Position numbers and translations under genes: made by a program
Shown: positions 20,114 through 39,729 of the stretch, one piece after another
Numbering within the stretch: the first letter of the stretch is position 1
Layout: each line of letters starts with the position of its first letter
From: a virus
IMG/VR virus record: IMGVR_UViG_3300020421_001669
Coordinates: 64,001-128,000 of that record
Strand: one strand, 5' to 3'
Length of the DNA stretch: 64,000 bases
The notes under the pieces: generated by a model
Seen by the model: the letters and a program-made list of their open reading frames with translations, nothing else
Database searches by the model: none
What the model was told of the DNA's origin: nothing

Positions 20114-20197
20114 AATCAATGACTTAGAGAGGCAGCTTTTACTTGACTTCTGCTATGGGATATGCGATCATAGTATTGTAATTGAGAGTGAGAGACT
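20114..20197 (+). promoter_or_regulatory. Early promoter class copy 1 (IHF-like site, TTGACT-N17-GATCAT, GTGAGAG leader)
   Basis: Shared architecture with the 22631 and 39618 copies. Confidence 0.75.
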
Positions 20198-22633
20198 ATG
20201 GATATAACTTCTAAATCATACCTTGCGAAACTCCTCGCCACTGAGGATGTTTCGATTGAACATAGGAATGTACCTACCGCGTATTTCGACTTGAAGTCTA
20301 GGAAAATTGTACTTCCCAATTGGAAGGACATGCCTGATTTCTTGTATGATTTATTGATTGGTCATGAAGTTGGTCACGCTCTCGTAACTCCCGCTGAAGG
20401 TTGGCACTCTGCCTCTTCTAGTAAGGGTGCAAATTTCAAATCATTCTTGAATGTTGTAGAAGATGTTAGGAATGAGAGACTAGTTAAAATCAGATATCCA
20501 GGCTTGGTCAAGTCATTCTATAAGGGATATCAAATGCTTTACAAGAAAGACTTTTTCGGTCTTTCAAAATTACAAAAGACTCCCCAAGAATTACCACTAA
20601 TTGATAGAATCAATCTTCACGCTAAGGTTGGTGCTTTCCTTACTCTACAATTCACTGCTGAGGAACAGGTCATACTTGACAAGTGTTTCGCTGCTGAGAC
20701 TTGGGATGAGGTTGTCGCCATTGCTGAGGAGTTGTATGACTTCTCTAAGACTGAAGACGCGATGCAAGATCTTTTAGATGAACAAATGGGTATGCCCCAG
20801 TTCGGTGAAGGTGAAGATGAAGATGAAGATGACTTCGCCCAAGATGAGAATGGCGAATGGTCAGAATCACCATACGGTGAAGAAGAGTCAGATGAAGGTG
20901 AGTCCGAGTCTGGTGAAGATACTGAAGAAACTGAAGAAGGTGAAGATAGTGGCGCTCAGTCTGGTGAAGGTGAAGAGACTGAAGAAGAAACTGAAGAGAC
21001 TACTCCTTCTAAAGAAGAGTCAAAAGATACTGAAGATTCTGCTGAGTCTGGTGATAGACCAGAAGATGGCGATATCATGGAAGGTTCTGATAATACTGAA
21101 GGGTACAATCCCCACGATTTCGATGACGCGGAACCTAAGTCATTTACCGATGAAGCGTTTAGAGATGCTGAATCAAACCTAGTAGAGTCTGGTAAGACCA
21201 ATGGTGTTGTTACCGCTACTATGCCTAAGTTCAAGTCTAAGTACTTTGTTTTCCCAACTACCGATGTTTGGCCTGCCCAAGATTTCAAGTATGTTTGTGG
21301 TGGAAGGTATGATGACATTCCTGCTGGTTCTGCTACGGATGTAGAGAAAACTTTGCTTGATGAATTCATGCAAAGAAACAAGGGTTCAATCAATCAACTA
21401 GTTATGCAGTTTGAGATGAAGAAAAAAGCCACCCTATTGAGGAAGGCTCAAGTCAACAAAACTGGTAAGTTGAATGAAGATAAGTTGTGGGCATACAAGT
21501 TGACTGAAGACTTGTTCCTATCAAGTACTACTGTGCCAGATGGTCAGAACCATGGCATGATGATGTTTGTAGACTTCTCTGGTTCAATGGGTAGACACAT
21601 GGCTGGTACTATTGAACAAACACTAATTCAAGTTGCCTTCTGCAAAAAAGTTGGTATCCCATTTGATGTGTACGGTTTTTCAAACTGCGCTAACTCTCTC
21701 CAAAGTGAGAAGTTCGGAAATGCTTCTAGGGGTTCTGCTTTTCAATCTGCTAATGATGGTGAGTTGTTTATTGAGTCTGGTGGGTTCGCTCTGCTTCAGT
21801 TGATATCTTCTGAATTGCCTCAGAGTGAGTACAATAGATGTTTCAAAAAGTTACTTGGTTACAAAACTTCATTTGAGTGGAGAGATATGAAACCAAGAAT
21901 GGAAAGATATGATGTTCCTTACCATCTTTATCTTGGGTCTACTCCGCTGTCAAGTTGTATGATAGTTGGTGCTAAGATTGCTAAACAGTTCAAGGAAAGA
22001 AACAGAATTGAAGTTATGAACACGATTGTTCTTTCCGATGGTGGAAACACTTCTGACTTAGAAGTAATCTCTGAAGGTCAATATGAAGAGAGTGGTAGGT
22101 TCAGATATGAAAATGCCATCTCAAAAGAGTTTGGTTATGGATACGGTGAAGAGAAAACCGAGATTGGTAAGTTCCAATTGAAAGGCAACGGTTTGTCAGT
22201 TACCACTAACATCAAAGGGATGTATGGAACAAACTACGGTAGGGTCTCTTATGAAAGTGCTACTGCTGTTACTTTCGACTACTACAAAAAGTTTGTTGGT
22301 TCCAGAATAGTTCACTTCTTCCTAGTTGATAACAACATTAGAGAAGCGAGACAGGCATGGACTGATATGACAGGAACCTTTGCCGAGTATGATGAAAACT
22401 TTGATAAAGAAAAGTCAACTAACTGGAAGCACAATAACTTCATGTCTTGCCAGTCTAAGTTGGGAAGTGATGCTTGTTTCATTCTGAAGGGTGCTAAGTC
22501 TCTTAATGAAGAAGCAGAGTTTGAAGTCAGTTCTGATAGTAAGGCTGACATTTTGAGAGGGTTCAAGAAATTCCAGAAAGGCAAGTCCAATTCCAGACAG
22601 TTCTTGAACAGATTTATTGATGAGGTCGCGTAA
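20198..22633 (+). CDS. Metallopeptidase-acidic linker-vWA protein (CobT-like)
   Basis: HEVGH and NVVEDVR motifs, about 100 aa Glu/Asp linker, MIDAS DFSGS, LSDG. Confidence 0.85.
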   Translation: MDITSKSYLAKLLATEDVSIEHRNVPTAYFDLKSRKIVLPNWKDMPDFLYDLLIGHEVGHALVTPAEGWHSASSSKGANFKSFLNVVEDVRNERLVKIRYPGLVKSFYKGYQMLYKKDFFGLSKLQKTPQELPLIDRINLHAKVGAFLTLQFTAEEQVILDKCFAAETWDEVVAIAEELYDFSKTEDAMQDLLDEQMGMPQFGEGEDEDEDDFAQDENGEWSESPYGEEESDEGESESGEDTEETEEGEDSGAQSGEGEETEEETEETTPSKEESKDTEDSAESGDRPEDGDIMEGSDNTEGYNPHDFDDAEPKSFTDEAFRDAESNLVESGKTNGVVTATMPKFKSKYFVFPTTDVWPAQDFKYVCGGRYDDIPAGSATDVEKTLLDEFMQRNKGSINQLVMQFEMKKKATLLRKAQVNKTGKLNEDKLWAYKLTEDLFLSSTTVPDGQNHGMMMFVDFSGSMGRHMAGTIEQTLIQVAFCKKVGIPFDVYGFSNCANSLQSEKFGNASRGSAFQSANDGELFIESGGFALLQLISSELPQSEYNRCFKKLLGYKTSFEWRDMKPRMERYDVPYHLYLGSTPLSSCMIVGAKIAKQFKERNRIEVMNTIVLSDGGNTSDLEVISEGQYEESGRFRYENAISKEFGYGYGEEKTEIGKFQLKGNGLSVTTNIKGMYGTNYGRVSYESATAVTFDYYKKFVGSRIVHFFLVDNNIREARQAWTDMTGTFAEYDENFDKEKSTNWKHNNFMSCQSKLGSDACFILKGAKSLNEEAEFEVSSDSKADILRGFKKFQKGKSNSRQFLNRFIDEVA

Positions 22634-22745
22634 GTGGTTGAATTTAAAGGGAAAGAAAATGAAAAAAAATTCATTTTGGCCCTTGACTTCTGCCCCCAAA
22701 TATGGGATCATGATCAAGTAATTGAGAAAAAGTGAGAGGTAAATT
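22631..22745 (+). promoter_or_regulatory. Early promoter class copy 2
   Basis: TAAGTGGTTGAAT...TTGACTTCTG...ATATGGGATCATGATC...GTGAGAGG. Confidence 0.75.
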
Positions 22746-23981
22746 ATGAGTGTAAAACAGAAAGAACAGTTCCTTCAGGCCCTTGCCGATGTGAACAATT
22801 CCGCGTCTGCTGTGTTCTCCAAGGCGGAGGCAATGCAGATTGCAAAATCAAATGGGTTGAAAAATCCCATGTGGTTTTTTAAAGAGTGTAAAGTTGGTAG
22901 GAACCAATTTTCGCCAAACATGGCAACTCTAATGACAGTGGGTAATACTGCTCTCAAACCTGTCGCCGCTGAGGCGACTGCCCTTGAAGAGTCAGTATCT
23001 ACCCTTGAACCAATTGAGACAATTCAGTCTCAAGCATTGGATGCCAAGATTGTAAAACAGGCAAAACTTGCGGTGGAAATAGAAAACTTAGTTCCAGATT
23101 CAGATAGTACTTATGTCCCATTTGGGTTCCATAAAGATTTGGTGAACATCATCAAGTCTGGTATGTTCTATCCTACTTTCATTTGTGGTCTATCTGGTAA
23201 CGGTAAGACTATGATGGTGGAACAGGTTTGTGCCAAACTCAAGAAAGAAGCCATTAGGGTTAACATCTCTATCGAAACCGATGAAGATGACTTGATTGGT
23301 GGTAACACTCTCGTGGATGGTAATGTGGTTTACAGGGAAGGCCCTGTGCTGACTGCCATGAAGAGAGGTGCGATTCTCATTCTGGATGAGATTGATAGGG
23401 GTTCTAACAAGTTGATGTGCCTTCAGGCAATCCTTGAAGGGAAACCTTACTTCAATAAGAAGTCTGGTGAGGTTGTCACGCCTGCTACTGGTTTCAATGT
23501 GATTGCTACTGCAAACACAAAAGGTAGGGGTTCCGATGATGGTAAGTTCATGGGTGCTCAAGTTCTGGATGAGGCGTTCCTAGAAAGGTTCGCTATCACG
23601 GTTGAACAGGAATATCCTTCTAGTGTTCAAGAGAAGAAAATTGTCATGAACAAAATGGGTGTTGCTGAGTGTGTCGATGAAGACTTTGCTGATAAGTTGG
23701 TCATGTGGGCTGACATAATCAGAAAGACTTTCTACGAAGGTGGAATCGATGAGTTGGTTTCTACCAGAAGGTTGGAACACATTGTCAAGGCATACGCCAT
23801 GTTCTCTGATAGACTCAAGGCAATTCAGTTGTGTGTCAATAGGTTTGATACCGACACCAAGTCTGCCTTCATTGACCTTTACACTAAGGTTGATGCTGGT
23901 GCCACGGTTGAAGAAATCATGGACAATCCTACCGATGGTTCTGAAGATAACAACCCAGAGGCTGATGACTATGACTTTTAA
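22746..23981 (+). CDS. MoxR/CobS-like AAA+ ATPase
   Basis: GLSGNGKT, LDEIDRG, TANTKG, LDEAFLERF, STRRL. Confidence 0.92.
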   Translation: MSVKQKEQFLQALADVNNSASAVFSKAEAMQIAKSNGLKNPMWFFKECKVGRNQFSPNMATLMTVGNTALKPVAAEATALEESVSTLEPIETIQSQALDAKIVKQAKLAVEIENLVPDSDSTYVPFGFHKDLVNIIKSGMFYPTFICGLSGNGKTMMVEQVCAKLKKEAIRVNISIETDEDDLIGGNTLVDGNVVYREGPVLTAMKRGAILILDEIDRGSNKLMCLQAILEGKPYFNKKSGEVVTPATGFNVIATANTKGRGSDDGKFMGAQVLDEAFLERFAITVEQEYPSSVQEKKIVMNKMGVAECVDEDFADKLVMWADIIRKTFYEGGIDELVSTRRLEHIVKAYAMFSDRLKAIQLCVNRFDTDTKSAFIDLYTKVDAGATVEEIMDNPTDGSEDNNPEADDYDF

Positions 23982-24249
23982 CCCAGACTACAAATACAAT
24001 GAAGGAGCTCTTATCAAAGAGCTCCAAACTTATATAGATGCCACTTATGGTGAGCACTACTCTATCAATAAGTATCAGGCAACCGAATTTATTATTGACG
24101 GTGGTCATGGTGAAGGATTTTGTATCGGGAATATTTTGAAGTACGCCCAGAGATACGGTAAGAAAGACGGTTACAACCGCAAAGATTTAATGAAAGTATT
24201 GCACTATGCAATAATCGCTCTTCATGTACACGATATGGAGCACGAATAA
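23971..24249 (+). CDS. DUF3310/T7 gp1.7-like protein
   Basis: HY...GFCIGNILKYAQRYGKKDG...DLMK. Confidence 0.8.
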   Translation: MTFNPDYKYNEGALIKELQTYIDATYGEHYSINKYQATEFIIDGGHGEGFCIGNILKYAQRYGKKDGYNRKDLMKVLHYAIIALHVHDMEHE

Positions 24250-24255
24250 TCAGTT

Positions 24256-24354
24256 TGCCCCCAGCGGGCAGTCGGGGCTTGGTACACCTCTCTCTTACTC
24301 TCTCACAAGAAGTATCAAGTTCCCGACAACTTTATTATAAATAAGAGAGTAAGA
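24256..24354 (+). ncRNA. Candidate structured RNA (long hairpin with CU-rich loop, possible pseudoknot)
   Basis: 15-bp stem 24271-24285/24312-24327; loop 24293-24303 is the exact complement of 24344-24354. Confidence 0.5.
24336..24343 (+). promoter_or_regulatory. T4-type late promoter TATAAATA
   Basis: Exact consensus. Confidence 0.8.
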
Positions 24355-24374
24355 ATTTTTTAGAGGAATTAACA

Positions 24375-24725
24375 ATGGCATATAGATTAACATACAATTG
24401 CACAAGGCCCGATACCACAGCAGATTGGTACTTTTTTTACGAGTCAGCTGATTCTGGTTTTGAAACAAATGCAACCCACTTTAGAAACTGGCTTGACGCG
24501 AGAAGCGATGTAACAGTGACACTTACTGTAGCAGAAGATAATCTCTCATTCAAATGGGAATTAGACTTTGCTGATGAAGCAGCTTACGATGCGTTTGTAG
24601 TCGATAGAACAGCTTTATTTGCAGATGCTCCTTACAGCGGAACCGCTCACTTACAGGAGACTGCATATCTGGATTACTTGTCCGCTAACAACATGGTAGC
24701 AACTGAGACCACTGCGGAAGTATAA
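24375..24725 (+). CDS. Hypothetical late-expressed protein
   Basis: GAGG SD; own late promoter. Confidence 0.7.
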   Translation: MAYRLTYNCTRPDTTADWYFFYESADSGFETNATHFRNWLDARSDVTVTLTVAEDNLSFKWELDFADEAAYDAFVVDRTALFADAPYSGTAHLQETAYLDYLSANNMVATETTAEV

Positions 24726-24734
24726 AGAAAGGGG

Positions 24735-24764
24735 TTGACATTTGCCCCTAACAAATGTTAATAT
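24735..24764 (+). promoter_or_regulatory. Sigma70 promoter for gp45
   Basis: TTGACATTTG-type -35; TAATAT at 18 bp. Confidence 0.6.
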
Positions 24765-24792: not shown

Positions 24793-25443
24793 ATGAAACT
24801 ATCCAAAACTACTTTGGAGCTGTTGAAAAACTTTGCTACGATTAATACCAATTTATTGGTTAAGTCTGGTAGTAGTTTATCAACTGTGTCCGCTTCAAAG
24901 TCTATTCTTGCAAAGGGCACAATTGAGGAGAACTTCCCACAGGAGTTCGCAATCTATGACTTAAATCAATTTCTATCTTTGGTCACAATGAGTGAAGATA
25001 CTGAGATTGATTTTTCCGATGATTATCTGACATGCAAATCTAATGCTGGAAGGTTCAAGTTTTATTACGCGGAACCATCTATCATTGTGGCAGCTCCAGA
25101 TAAAGAAATTGAAATTGATTCTTTCTATCAATTCAATATTACCAAAGAACAACTCAACACTATCTACAGGGCAGCAAGTGTAATCTCTGCTCCTACTCTT
25201 AGTGTTGTCGCCAATGCTGGCAATGTGGTTCTGAGTGTGGGTGACCCGAATACTCCTAAGAGTAATTCATTCACCACTGACATTGGTAATGCTAATGTAG
25301 AGTTTGATGCTAGACTAGGAATTGAAAACCTAAAAGTAATCGCGGATGATTATGAGGTTACTGTTTCCCAGAAGAAAGTATTTAAATTTTCTAACGCTAA
25401 GAGAACCTACTTCTTGGCACTTGAACCGAGTTCAAATATCTAA
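24793..25443 (+). CDS. 45: Sliding clamp
   Basis: MKLSKTTLELLKNFATIN, FAIYDLNQFL, YFLALE. Confidence 0.95.
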   Translation: MKLSKTTLELLKNFATINTNLLVKSGSSLSTVSASKSILAKGTIEENFPQEFAIYDLNQFLSLVTMSEDTEIDFSDDYLTCKSNAGRFKFYYAEPSIIVAAPDKEIEIDSFYQFNITKEQLNTIYRAASVISAPTLSVVANAGNVVLSVGDPNTPKSNSFTTDIGNANVEFDARLGIENLKVIADDYEVTVSQKKVFKFSNAKRTYFLALEPSSNI

Positions 25444-39633: not shown

Positions 39634-39729
39634 AACGATATTTAATTTCACTTTTTTTCGCTTTGGCCCTTGACTTTTGGGTCAAAATATGGGATCATGA
39701 TCATATAAATTAGAGAAGTGAGAGAAAAT
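39618..39729 (+). promoter_or_regulatory. Early promoter class copy 3
   Basis: TAAGTTGTTGATT...TTGACTTTTG...ATATGGGATCATGATC...GTGAGAGA. Confidence 0.75.

Follow-up and report, generated by a model that had tools for sequence, protein, structure and literature searches.

Introduction

In bacteriophage T4, the genes e (lysozyme), soc, 49 and I-TevI are preceded by a sequence, located 5′ of the late promoter, that pairs with the ribosome-binding region in RNAs reading through from early or middle transcription (PMC3014915). Late transcripts of these genes start inside the inhibitory structure, lose its 5′ arm and are translated (PMC3014915). The locus described here resembles these four genes in having a late gene that lies 3′ of early/middle transcription on the same strand, an arm 5′ of the sequence TATAAATA that is complementary to the ribosome-binding region, and a promoter inside the proposed structure. 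In T4, however, the structure is a simple nested hairpin. At the present locus, the 5′ arm belongs to the loop of another hairpin that is conserved in its own right, and its pairing would be a pseudoknot. Also unlike the T4 cases, strong complementarity is found here in some clades only, and the sequences are not homologous.

Post-transcriptional timing has its textbook case in T4, yet the masking structures established so far are simple hairpins, all from experiments on that one phage. The present element combines a terminator-like stem, an anti-Shine-Dalgarno (anti-SD) loop and a late promoter in a single module of 100 nt. We are inclined to view it as a new variant of the T4 masking strategy, although it stands a modest chance of proving more novel than that; if the masking is true, the T4 logic would also operate through a pseudoknot and in a new phage clade.

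Genomic Context and Promoters

The window (the whole stretch of 64,000 nt that we analysed) comprises bases 64001–128000 of a 161,406-bp IMG/VR virus record, with a GC content of 37.6% and nearly all genes on the + strand. The gene content is T4-like, and the source is an uncultured marine T4-like phage. The nearest catalogued phages are the uncultured ‘Marine virus AG-345’ records and cyanomyoviruses, with a gp45 identity of only 41–44%. The element, which consists of a small hairpin (P1) and a larger one (P2), lies in the 125-nt spacer between the early cobT-cobS-DUF3310 unit and a late gene for a 116-aa protein with a TATAAATA promoter. The surrounding genes are as follows.

20198–22633, + strand: cobT-like vWA gene, early unit
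22746–23981, + strand: cobS/MoxR gene, early unit
23965–24249, + strand: DUF3310 gene, last of the early unit (ORF list, PHROG and Pfam DUF3310 matches, synteny in relatives)
24247–24249, + strand: stop codon of the DUF3310 gene, 6 nt before P1
24375–24725, + strand: 116-aa ORF (late gene), first gene 3′ of the element
24793–25443, + strand: gp45 sliding clamp gene, followed by a peroxiredoxin gene, a Mom-like gene and others

Each of cobT and cobS has a sigma-70-type promoter (TTGACT, 17 bp, GATCAT), and gp45 has a promoter of its own (TTGACA, 18 bp, TAATAT at 24735–24764). Across the genome, the coding (+) strand has 26 copies of TATAAATA and the − strand 3, often 10–60 nt 5′ of a start codon; on account of this strand bias and of the frequent spacing ahead of start codons, we take it to be the T4-type late promoter of the phage.

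Early promoters with a GATCAT −10 box form a class, present at 20143–20197, 22683–22745 and 39670–39729 of the window and at genome positions 136421, 140289 and 142580. Downstream of each comes a leader of common type, UUGAGAG...GUGAGAG, and the leaders of this class remain purine-rich in distant relatives that have ordinary TATAAT boxes. At the gp45 promoter, the −35 hexamer (24735–24740) is contained in the loop of a small hairpin formed by AGGGG (24730–24734) and CCCCT (24745–24749), within window positions 24730–24764, an arrangement that resembles the promoter-early stem-loops of other T4-like phages. The spacer carrying the gp45 promoter is conserved at 88–97% in close relatives and at 71% in a more divergent one (L015).

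In many relatives the DUF3310 protein has a C-terminal extension with an acidic ...(E/D)DDIPF tail (L006:216–290, with equivalent ends in L009, L010, L012, L013 and L017), which resembles the C-terminal tip of bacterial SSB; the copy in the window, ending at 24246, lacks it.

Anatomy of the Element

The preliminary description of this DNA had placed a small hairpin and a 15-bp stem directly after the early unit, together with a pairing between the loop of the stem and the late leader. Read directly from the sequence, all of these stems and pairings are present, and the element comprises the following parts.

24251–24255, + strand: C(A/G)GUU motif separating the stop codon from P1, present in nearly all lineages in the alignments
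24256–24270, + strand: P1, small hairpin of 5 bp (24256–24260 with 24266–24270) and a 5-nt loop, abutting P2
24271–24327, + strand: P2, terminator-like hairpin (arms 24271–24285 and 24312–24327) that carries the large loop
24286–24311, + strand: P2 loop, 26 nt, with an 18-nt pyrimidine run at 24287–24304
24328–24335, + strand: U-rich tail after P2, weak in the window (3+2 U)
24336–24343, + strand: predicted T4-type late promoter TATAAATA, invariant in all lineages
24344–24354, + strand: leader arm, directly 3′ of TATAAATA
24362–24367, + strand: Shine-Dalgarno (SD) sequence AGAGGA of the late gene

Two of the 15 bp of P2 are G-U, a 1-nt bulge occurs at 24320, and the stability of the hairpin is about −20 kcal/mol. 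Its loop contains two segments of interest. The first, an anti-leader arm at 24293–24303, is the exact reverse complement (11 bp) of the leader arm that immediately follows the promoter. The second, CCUCU at 24287–24291, is an anti-SD sequence complementary to the AGAGG (24362–24366) of the late-gene SD, shortly before the gene start at 24375; this complementarity was absent from the preliminary description. Based on what is known of T4, we assume that late transcription starts near 24349.

RNAfold predicted P1 and P2 in the 125-nt spacer, at −31 kcal/mol (z = −2.05). When 26 downstream bases were added, giving a 151-nt read-through RNA, the minimum-energy fold was a long-range pairing that included the SD and the AUG (−32.8), while the late leader by itself was almost unstructured (−2.9). 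The reverse complement of 24250–24374, on the nearly gene-free minus strand, folds more stably (−39 kcal/mol, z = −3.5), because C-A mismatches turn into G-U pairs there.

A search of the whole window against Rfam 15 gave no family at the gathering threshold, the best local matches in a permissive scan (E up to 10) having E = 0.6–8 and falling far short of it. Pairing of the C(A/G)GUU motif with the P2 tail, as a helix closing the element, amounts to 4 bp in the window and is not kept in other clades. The motif itself persists across clades with unrelated stems; it resembles the cleavage preference of RNase E known from the literature and so could mark a processing site.

Conservation and Covariation

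We found 16 IMG/VR loci that encode a 116-aa protein with 69–89% identity, and the element lies directly upstream in 16/16; a scan for the exact 18-mer of the loop added further loci to these protein-based ones. Twelve distinct close variants were aligned over 142 columns (mean identity 90%), throughout which the 18-nt pyrimidine run is invariant. Compared with the window, the spacer is 92–97% identical in close relatives and its hairpin part 94–99%, whereas the flanking genes are 72–86% identical (DUF3310, 76–86%; the 116-aa gene, 72–78%). In the more divergent branch L015, the spacer is at 78% and the hairpin part at 76%, and gene identity falls to 65%. Even this shallow set contains three compensatory pairs in P2.

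Remote homologues of the 116-aa protein (23–37% identity) were collected by a profile search of 1.8 billion proteins. The contigs of these homologues, together with a degenerate pattern scan, yielded four further clades, so that five diverged clades were available in total. All of them share a common order: stop codon of the upstream gene, C(A/G)GUU, P1, P2 with a CU-rich loop, U-rich tail, TATAAATA, leader, SD and homologous gene. P1 is present in every clade, with differing sequences and a length of 3–6 bp; P2 measures 12–20 bp (−20 to −34 kcal/mol), and its stems have no sequence in common across clades. The tail spans 4–12 nt and the leader 31–45 nt. The CU-rich loop, 19–27 nt long in all clades, usually starts with (A/G)CCUCUCUC.

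From the close set we derived a covariance model, and with it the distant copies were found again. In the resulting alignment (A4), which was fitted to the model's own structure, double changes occur at 19 of the 20 pairs (P1, 5/5; P2, 14/15). Paired cells amount to 97.1% in this fitted alignment, versus 76.1% in shuffled ones (0/500 reach the observed value) and 33–44% when the partners are slid; P2 alone is 99% paired. The analysis of covariation in related phages that the preliminary description had proposed came out in favour of the element, with stem and CU loop kept in the relatives. Conservation and covariation strongly support a functional structured RNA; by these measures it is a real, conserved and covarying RNA that had not been described before. 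To have such a comparatively well-supported structure, absent from Rfam, is of interest given that it comes from abundant uncultured marine T4-like phages.

The gene upstream of the element varies with the clade, being either DUF3310 or an inserted ketoacyl synthase, which implies that the element travels with its downstream gene. The ketoacyl-synthase gene lies between DUF3310 and the element in one clade (L040:1239–2351; L046:265–1380). Both the 116-aa gene and the element are missing from the cultured relative Synechococcus phage S-SM2 and from Marine virus AG-345-L05, and in them cobS and/or DUF3310 directly abut gp45.

Other explanations for the conserved spacer were discarded. Stop-codon read-through or a hidden ORF across the element would need a conserved frame, which does not exist because the stretch from the stop codon to P1 varies by 1-nt indels among close relatives. 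A 59-aa minus-strand ORF (24295–24474), antisense to the start of the late gene, found no support. A DNA-level repeat or mobile cassette is at odds with the element being single-copy in the genome and with stems that covary as those of an RNA do.

Proposed Pairing of the Loop with the Late-Gene Leader

The 11-bp match between loop and leader is beyond chance. The exact 11-mer is present only at its two sites in 64 kb. The loop/TIR duplex has an energy of −19.8 kcal/mol, compared with −8.0 ± 2.4 for shuffled loops, of which none in 300 was as good, and with −12.4 when the loop was reversed. Complementarity between upstream and downstream sequences was found at this junction only, among the 17 late-promoter/gene junctions of the genome (z = −3.7), and no other alternating C/U run of its kind exists on the coding strand of the 161-kb genome.

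These observations, together with the location of the late promoter between the 5′ arm (24287–24303) and the ribosome-binding region (24344–24366), led us to the reading that we prefer, albeit tentatively and at somewhat less than an even chance: that P2 is a terminator-like hairpin whose anti-SD/anti-leader loop silences the late gene in read-through transcripts. In such a scheme, transcripts of the early cobT-cobS-DUF3310 unit would have P1 and P2 folded in their 3′ UTR. With its GC-based stem and U-rich tail, P2 would terminate transcription intrinsically, or stabilise the 3′ end, with less than full efficiency, and its large loop would display a pyrimidine tract resembling the anti-SD of 16S rRNA. 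In RNAs that read through, this tract may pair with the purine-rich leader at 24344–24354 and with the SD at 24362–24366, and the resulting pseudoknot-like structure would hide the ribosome-binding region. Late transcripts, starting near 24349, would be devoid of the tract, because the late promoter sits between the two pairing partners; their leader would be unstructured and they would be translated.

The complementarity is not uniform among clades. In the window clade, the upstream arm matches the leader and SD beyond chance (11 bp + 5 bp), and the late leader of the window pairs over 11 bp with loops of its own clade versus 6–7 bp with foreign loops. Since both partners of this helix are invariant within the clade, they offer no base-by-base covariation. 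Elsewhere, the loop/TIR duplex reaches −19.0 kcal/mol in L015, −19.1 in L038 (where the reversed loop is nearly as good, at −18.6) and a moderate −12.4 in L043; in L054, an 8-nt GA leader is kept directly after the promoter. The match fails in L040, L046 and L048: in L040/L050, L046/L098 and L048 the duplex has energies of −5.6 to −8.7 kcal/mol, no better than those of shuffled loops, and L154 and L053 have no GA leader. The CU loop is nevertheless conserved in all of these lineages.

We also compared read-through and late RNAs from 12 lineages by nested-fold ensembles; the probabilities of being unpaired were about equal in the two, and no consistent drop in SD accessibility emerged. Masking would therefore depend on the pseudoknot. 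The cis switch from early read-through to the late gene, as advanced in the preliminary description, is thus favoured by the anatomy of the locus, by the T4 precedent and by the complementarity in the window clade, but this complementarity does not extend to all clades and the effect does not appear in nested folds.

As to its geometry, the interaction is presumably an H-type pseudoknot, whose connectors (7, 8 and 16 nt) should be long enough for an 11-bp helix. A rough estimate, which was not computed, sets about −20 kcal/mol from the stacking of 11 bp against a typical penalty of about +10, which would leave a net gain of roughly −10 kcal/mol. If both arms were to pair in full, the top of P2 could apparently not stay intact for steric reasons; pairing with the SD as well would need the A-U-rich top of P2 to open.

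The leader of T4 gene 32 offers another point of comparison. It contains a compact 5′ pseudoknot that nucleates the binding of the gp32 protein. As in that leader, a pseudoknot-type element would precede a gene of the replication region in a T4-like phage, with control at the level of translation in the T4 case; here, though, the element lies 5′ of a late promoter, whereas in T4 gp32 itself is the partner.

Possible Terminator Function and Protein Binding

As in intrinsic terminators, the base of the P2 stem is GC-rich and leads into a U-rich tract, weak in the window, where the operon ends. This combination recurs in every lineage, with U4–U7 in most and U6–U7 in several, and terminator-then-promoter junctions are common in compact phage genomes. 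On these grounds, P2 might be taken as a plain intrinsic terminator of the early unit with a late promoter behind it, in which case neither the loop nor its complementarities would have a function of their own. We judge this highly improbable. The loop, at 26 nt in the window and 19–27 nt in relatives, is well outside the range of short terminator loops (about 3–8 nt) and should weaken termination, the U tract in the window is weak, and a terminator consensus scan did not flag P2. Canonical terminators elsewhere in the same genome have loops of 4–8 nt and T8 tails. Furthermore, the 18-mer of the loop is invariant where the stems vary, and the loop composition is kept across clades whose stems are unrelated. 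A more plausible role for P2 would be that of an inefficient terminator, or of a 3′ stabiliser, letting some transcription through.

The conserved loop could instead bind a protein, such as Rho (for which it would be a mini loading site), ribosomal protein S1 or an RNA-binding protein of the phage, that tunes termination or the stability of the early-mRNA 3′ end. Apart from the stems, the only feature common to all clades is indeed a single-stranded C/U tract within a stable hairpin, immediately 3′ of the final stop codon of the operon; Rho prefers YC-rich single strands, and pairing with the late leader fails to explain why the loop is conserved in three lineages. Against this, 19–27 nt are short for Rho, and no candidate protein was identified, the adjoining 116-aa protein having a generic ferredoxin-like fold. 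Altogether we find protein binding a distinctly improbable explanation of the loop.

Early Leaders as Possible Partners of the Loop

The preferred masking model places the partner of the loop in cis, a short distance downstream. Two more distant candidates lie within the early unit.

20184–20195, + strand: purine-rich leader/SD of cobT (vWA), candidate distant partner of the loop
22734–22740, + strand: SD region of cobS (MoxR), candidate distant partner of the loop, 7 bp perfect

The preliminary description had pointed to short matches between the loop and early leaders (GTGAGAGA at 20188 and 39718, GAGAGGT at 22734) and had suggested a trans-acting RNA that shuts off early translation. The matches do occur at these sites, but their counts in the window are at chance level for 8-mers (4 found vs 3.4 expected) as well as for 7-mers (10 vs 7.2). 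The cobT match is longer than reported there, spanning 12 bp with one G-U (20184–20195 vs 24291–24302), and still not above low-complexity controls. Chance matching of low-complexity CT/GA sequence, which had been named as a possible refutation, can account for the 7- and 8-mer matches to early leaders and not for the 11-bp match to the late leader.

In a broader form of this idea, the P1–P2 RNA would be the 3′ end of the early mRNA, or possibly a small RNA cleaved just after the stop codon, and its loop would pair in trans, or within the same mRNA, with the leaders of cobT, cobS and a few other early genes, limiting or timing their translation. Several findings are in keeping with it. When ribosome-binding regions were ranked by their match to the loop, the cobT and cobS leaders came 1st and 6th of 178 in the genome, and were the top two of 11 and of 8 regions in two distant lineages. 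These leaders are markedly purine-rich in each lineage read (window, L015, L049/L154, L050 and L096), and each lineage has a perfect match of 7–12 bp between them and the loop; in L096 the interruption of the loop is exactly that of the cobT leader (11 bp). The single-stranded seed is conserved, as an 18-nt tract invariant in the window clade and as a CU-rich loop in all clades, and the C(A/G)GUU motif, which resembles the RNase E preference, stands between the stop codon and P1.

The controls, however, are less favourable. Purine-rich leaders are the usual look of strong SD regions. The real loop matched 9 regions at −17 kcal/mol or below, against 2.7 ± 1.5 for shuffled loops, but the reversed loop, in which the C/U alternation is retained, matched 7. 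Cognate loop/leader pairs were no better than non-cognate ones (8.0 vs 7.6 nt), and lineage-specific covariation between the loops and the cobT/cobS leaders was sought and not found. Locally, the leaders of cobT and cobS match the loop best in three lineages. As far as the sequences go, the complementarity is real at the level of sequence class, and it cannot be separated from the pairing of any CU tract with any strong GA-type SD region. We therefore regard regulation of early leaders by the loop as unlikely, and keep it in play chiefly on account of lineages that retain the CU loop although their late leader does not match it.

A composite of the above is conceivable, in which the cobT/cobS mRNA carries a terminator-embedded loop that mimics the 16S anti-SD and, within the mRNA or as a small RNA, times the translation of early and late leaders alike. 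We consider this rather unlikely. Should it be true, no regulatory RNA acting in trans or over a long range would have been described before it in a T4-like phage; more generally, action of the loop on early leaders would define a new class of phage riboregulator.

Regulators with a comparable design are known from bacteria. The C-rich loops of RNAIII and RsaE from S. aureus bind SD regions, and cyanobacterial Yfr1 has an unpaired CU-rich motif between two hairpins. The present element shares with them a conserved, single-stranded C/U-rich motif, presented by stable hairpins, with complementarity to SD regions. Unlike them, it is located in the 3′ UTR/terminator loop of a phage operon, is known from sequence alone and has no Rfam match to such families.

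An exact complement of the 18-nt loop was also noticed in a siphovirus-like contig (L020:9266–9283, minus strand), in the leader of a gene that has no homologue in the present genome. This leader immediately precedes an ORF of 149 aa, which in turn lies upstream of a 1261-aa protein. We rejected it as a target, since the match is probably due to chance: by a rough estimate from the collection size, about that many random matches to an 18-mer are expected.

The Downstream Protein and Analogous Loci

The 116-aa protein is always encoded directly after the element. It matches no Pfam or PHROG family. An AlphaFold model obtained from a deep alignment (pLDDT 95.9) has a ferredoxin-like α+β fold, of the dimeric α-β barrel/ABM-like type, for which only weak structural matches were found (TM 0.4–0.5). 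Such a generic fold, with weak matches and no family assignment, led us to set aside an RNA-binding role for this protein.

An analogous layout was observed in unrelated phage contigs that contain no homologues of the genes discussed here (L163:440–590 and L063:2700–2810, the latter also in L077). It consists of a small hairpin or long stem, a large loop with a CU-rich run, a U-rich tail and TATAAATA, and could be due to convergence or to chance among 113 pattern matches. Finally, one relative (L054:1158–1854) has two tandem paralogues of the 116-aa protein, of 111 and 122 aa, and there the element is found ahead of the first.
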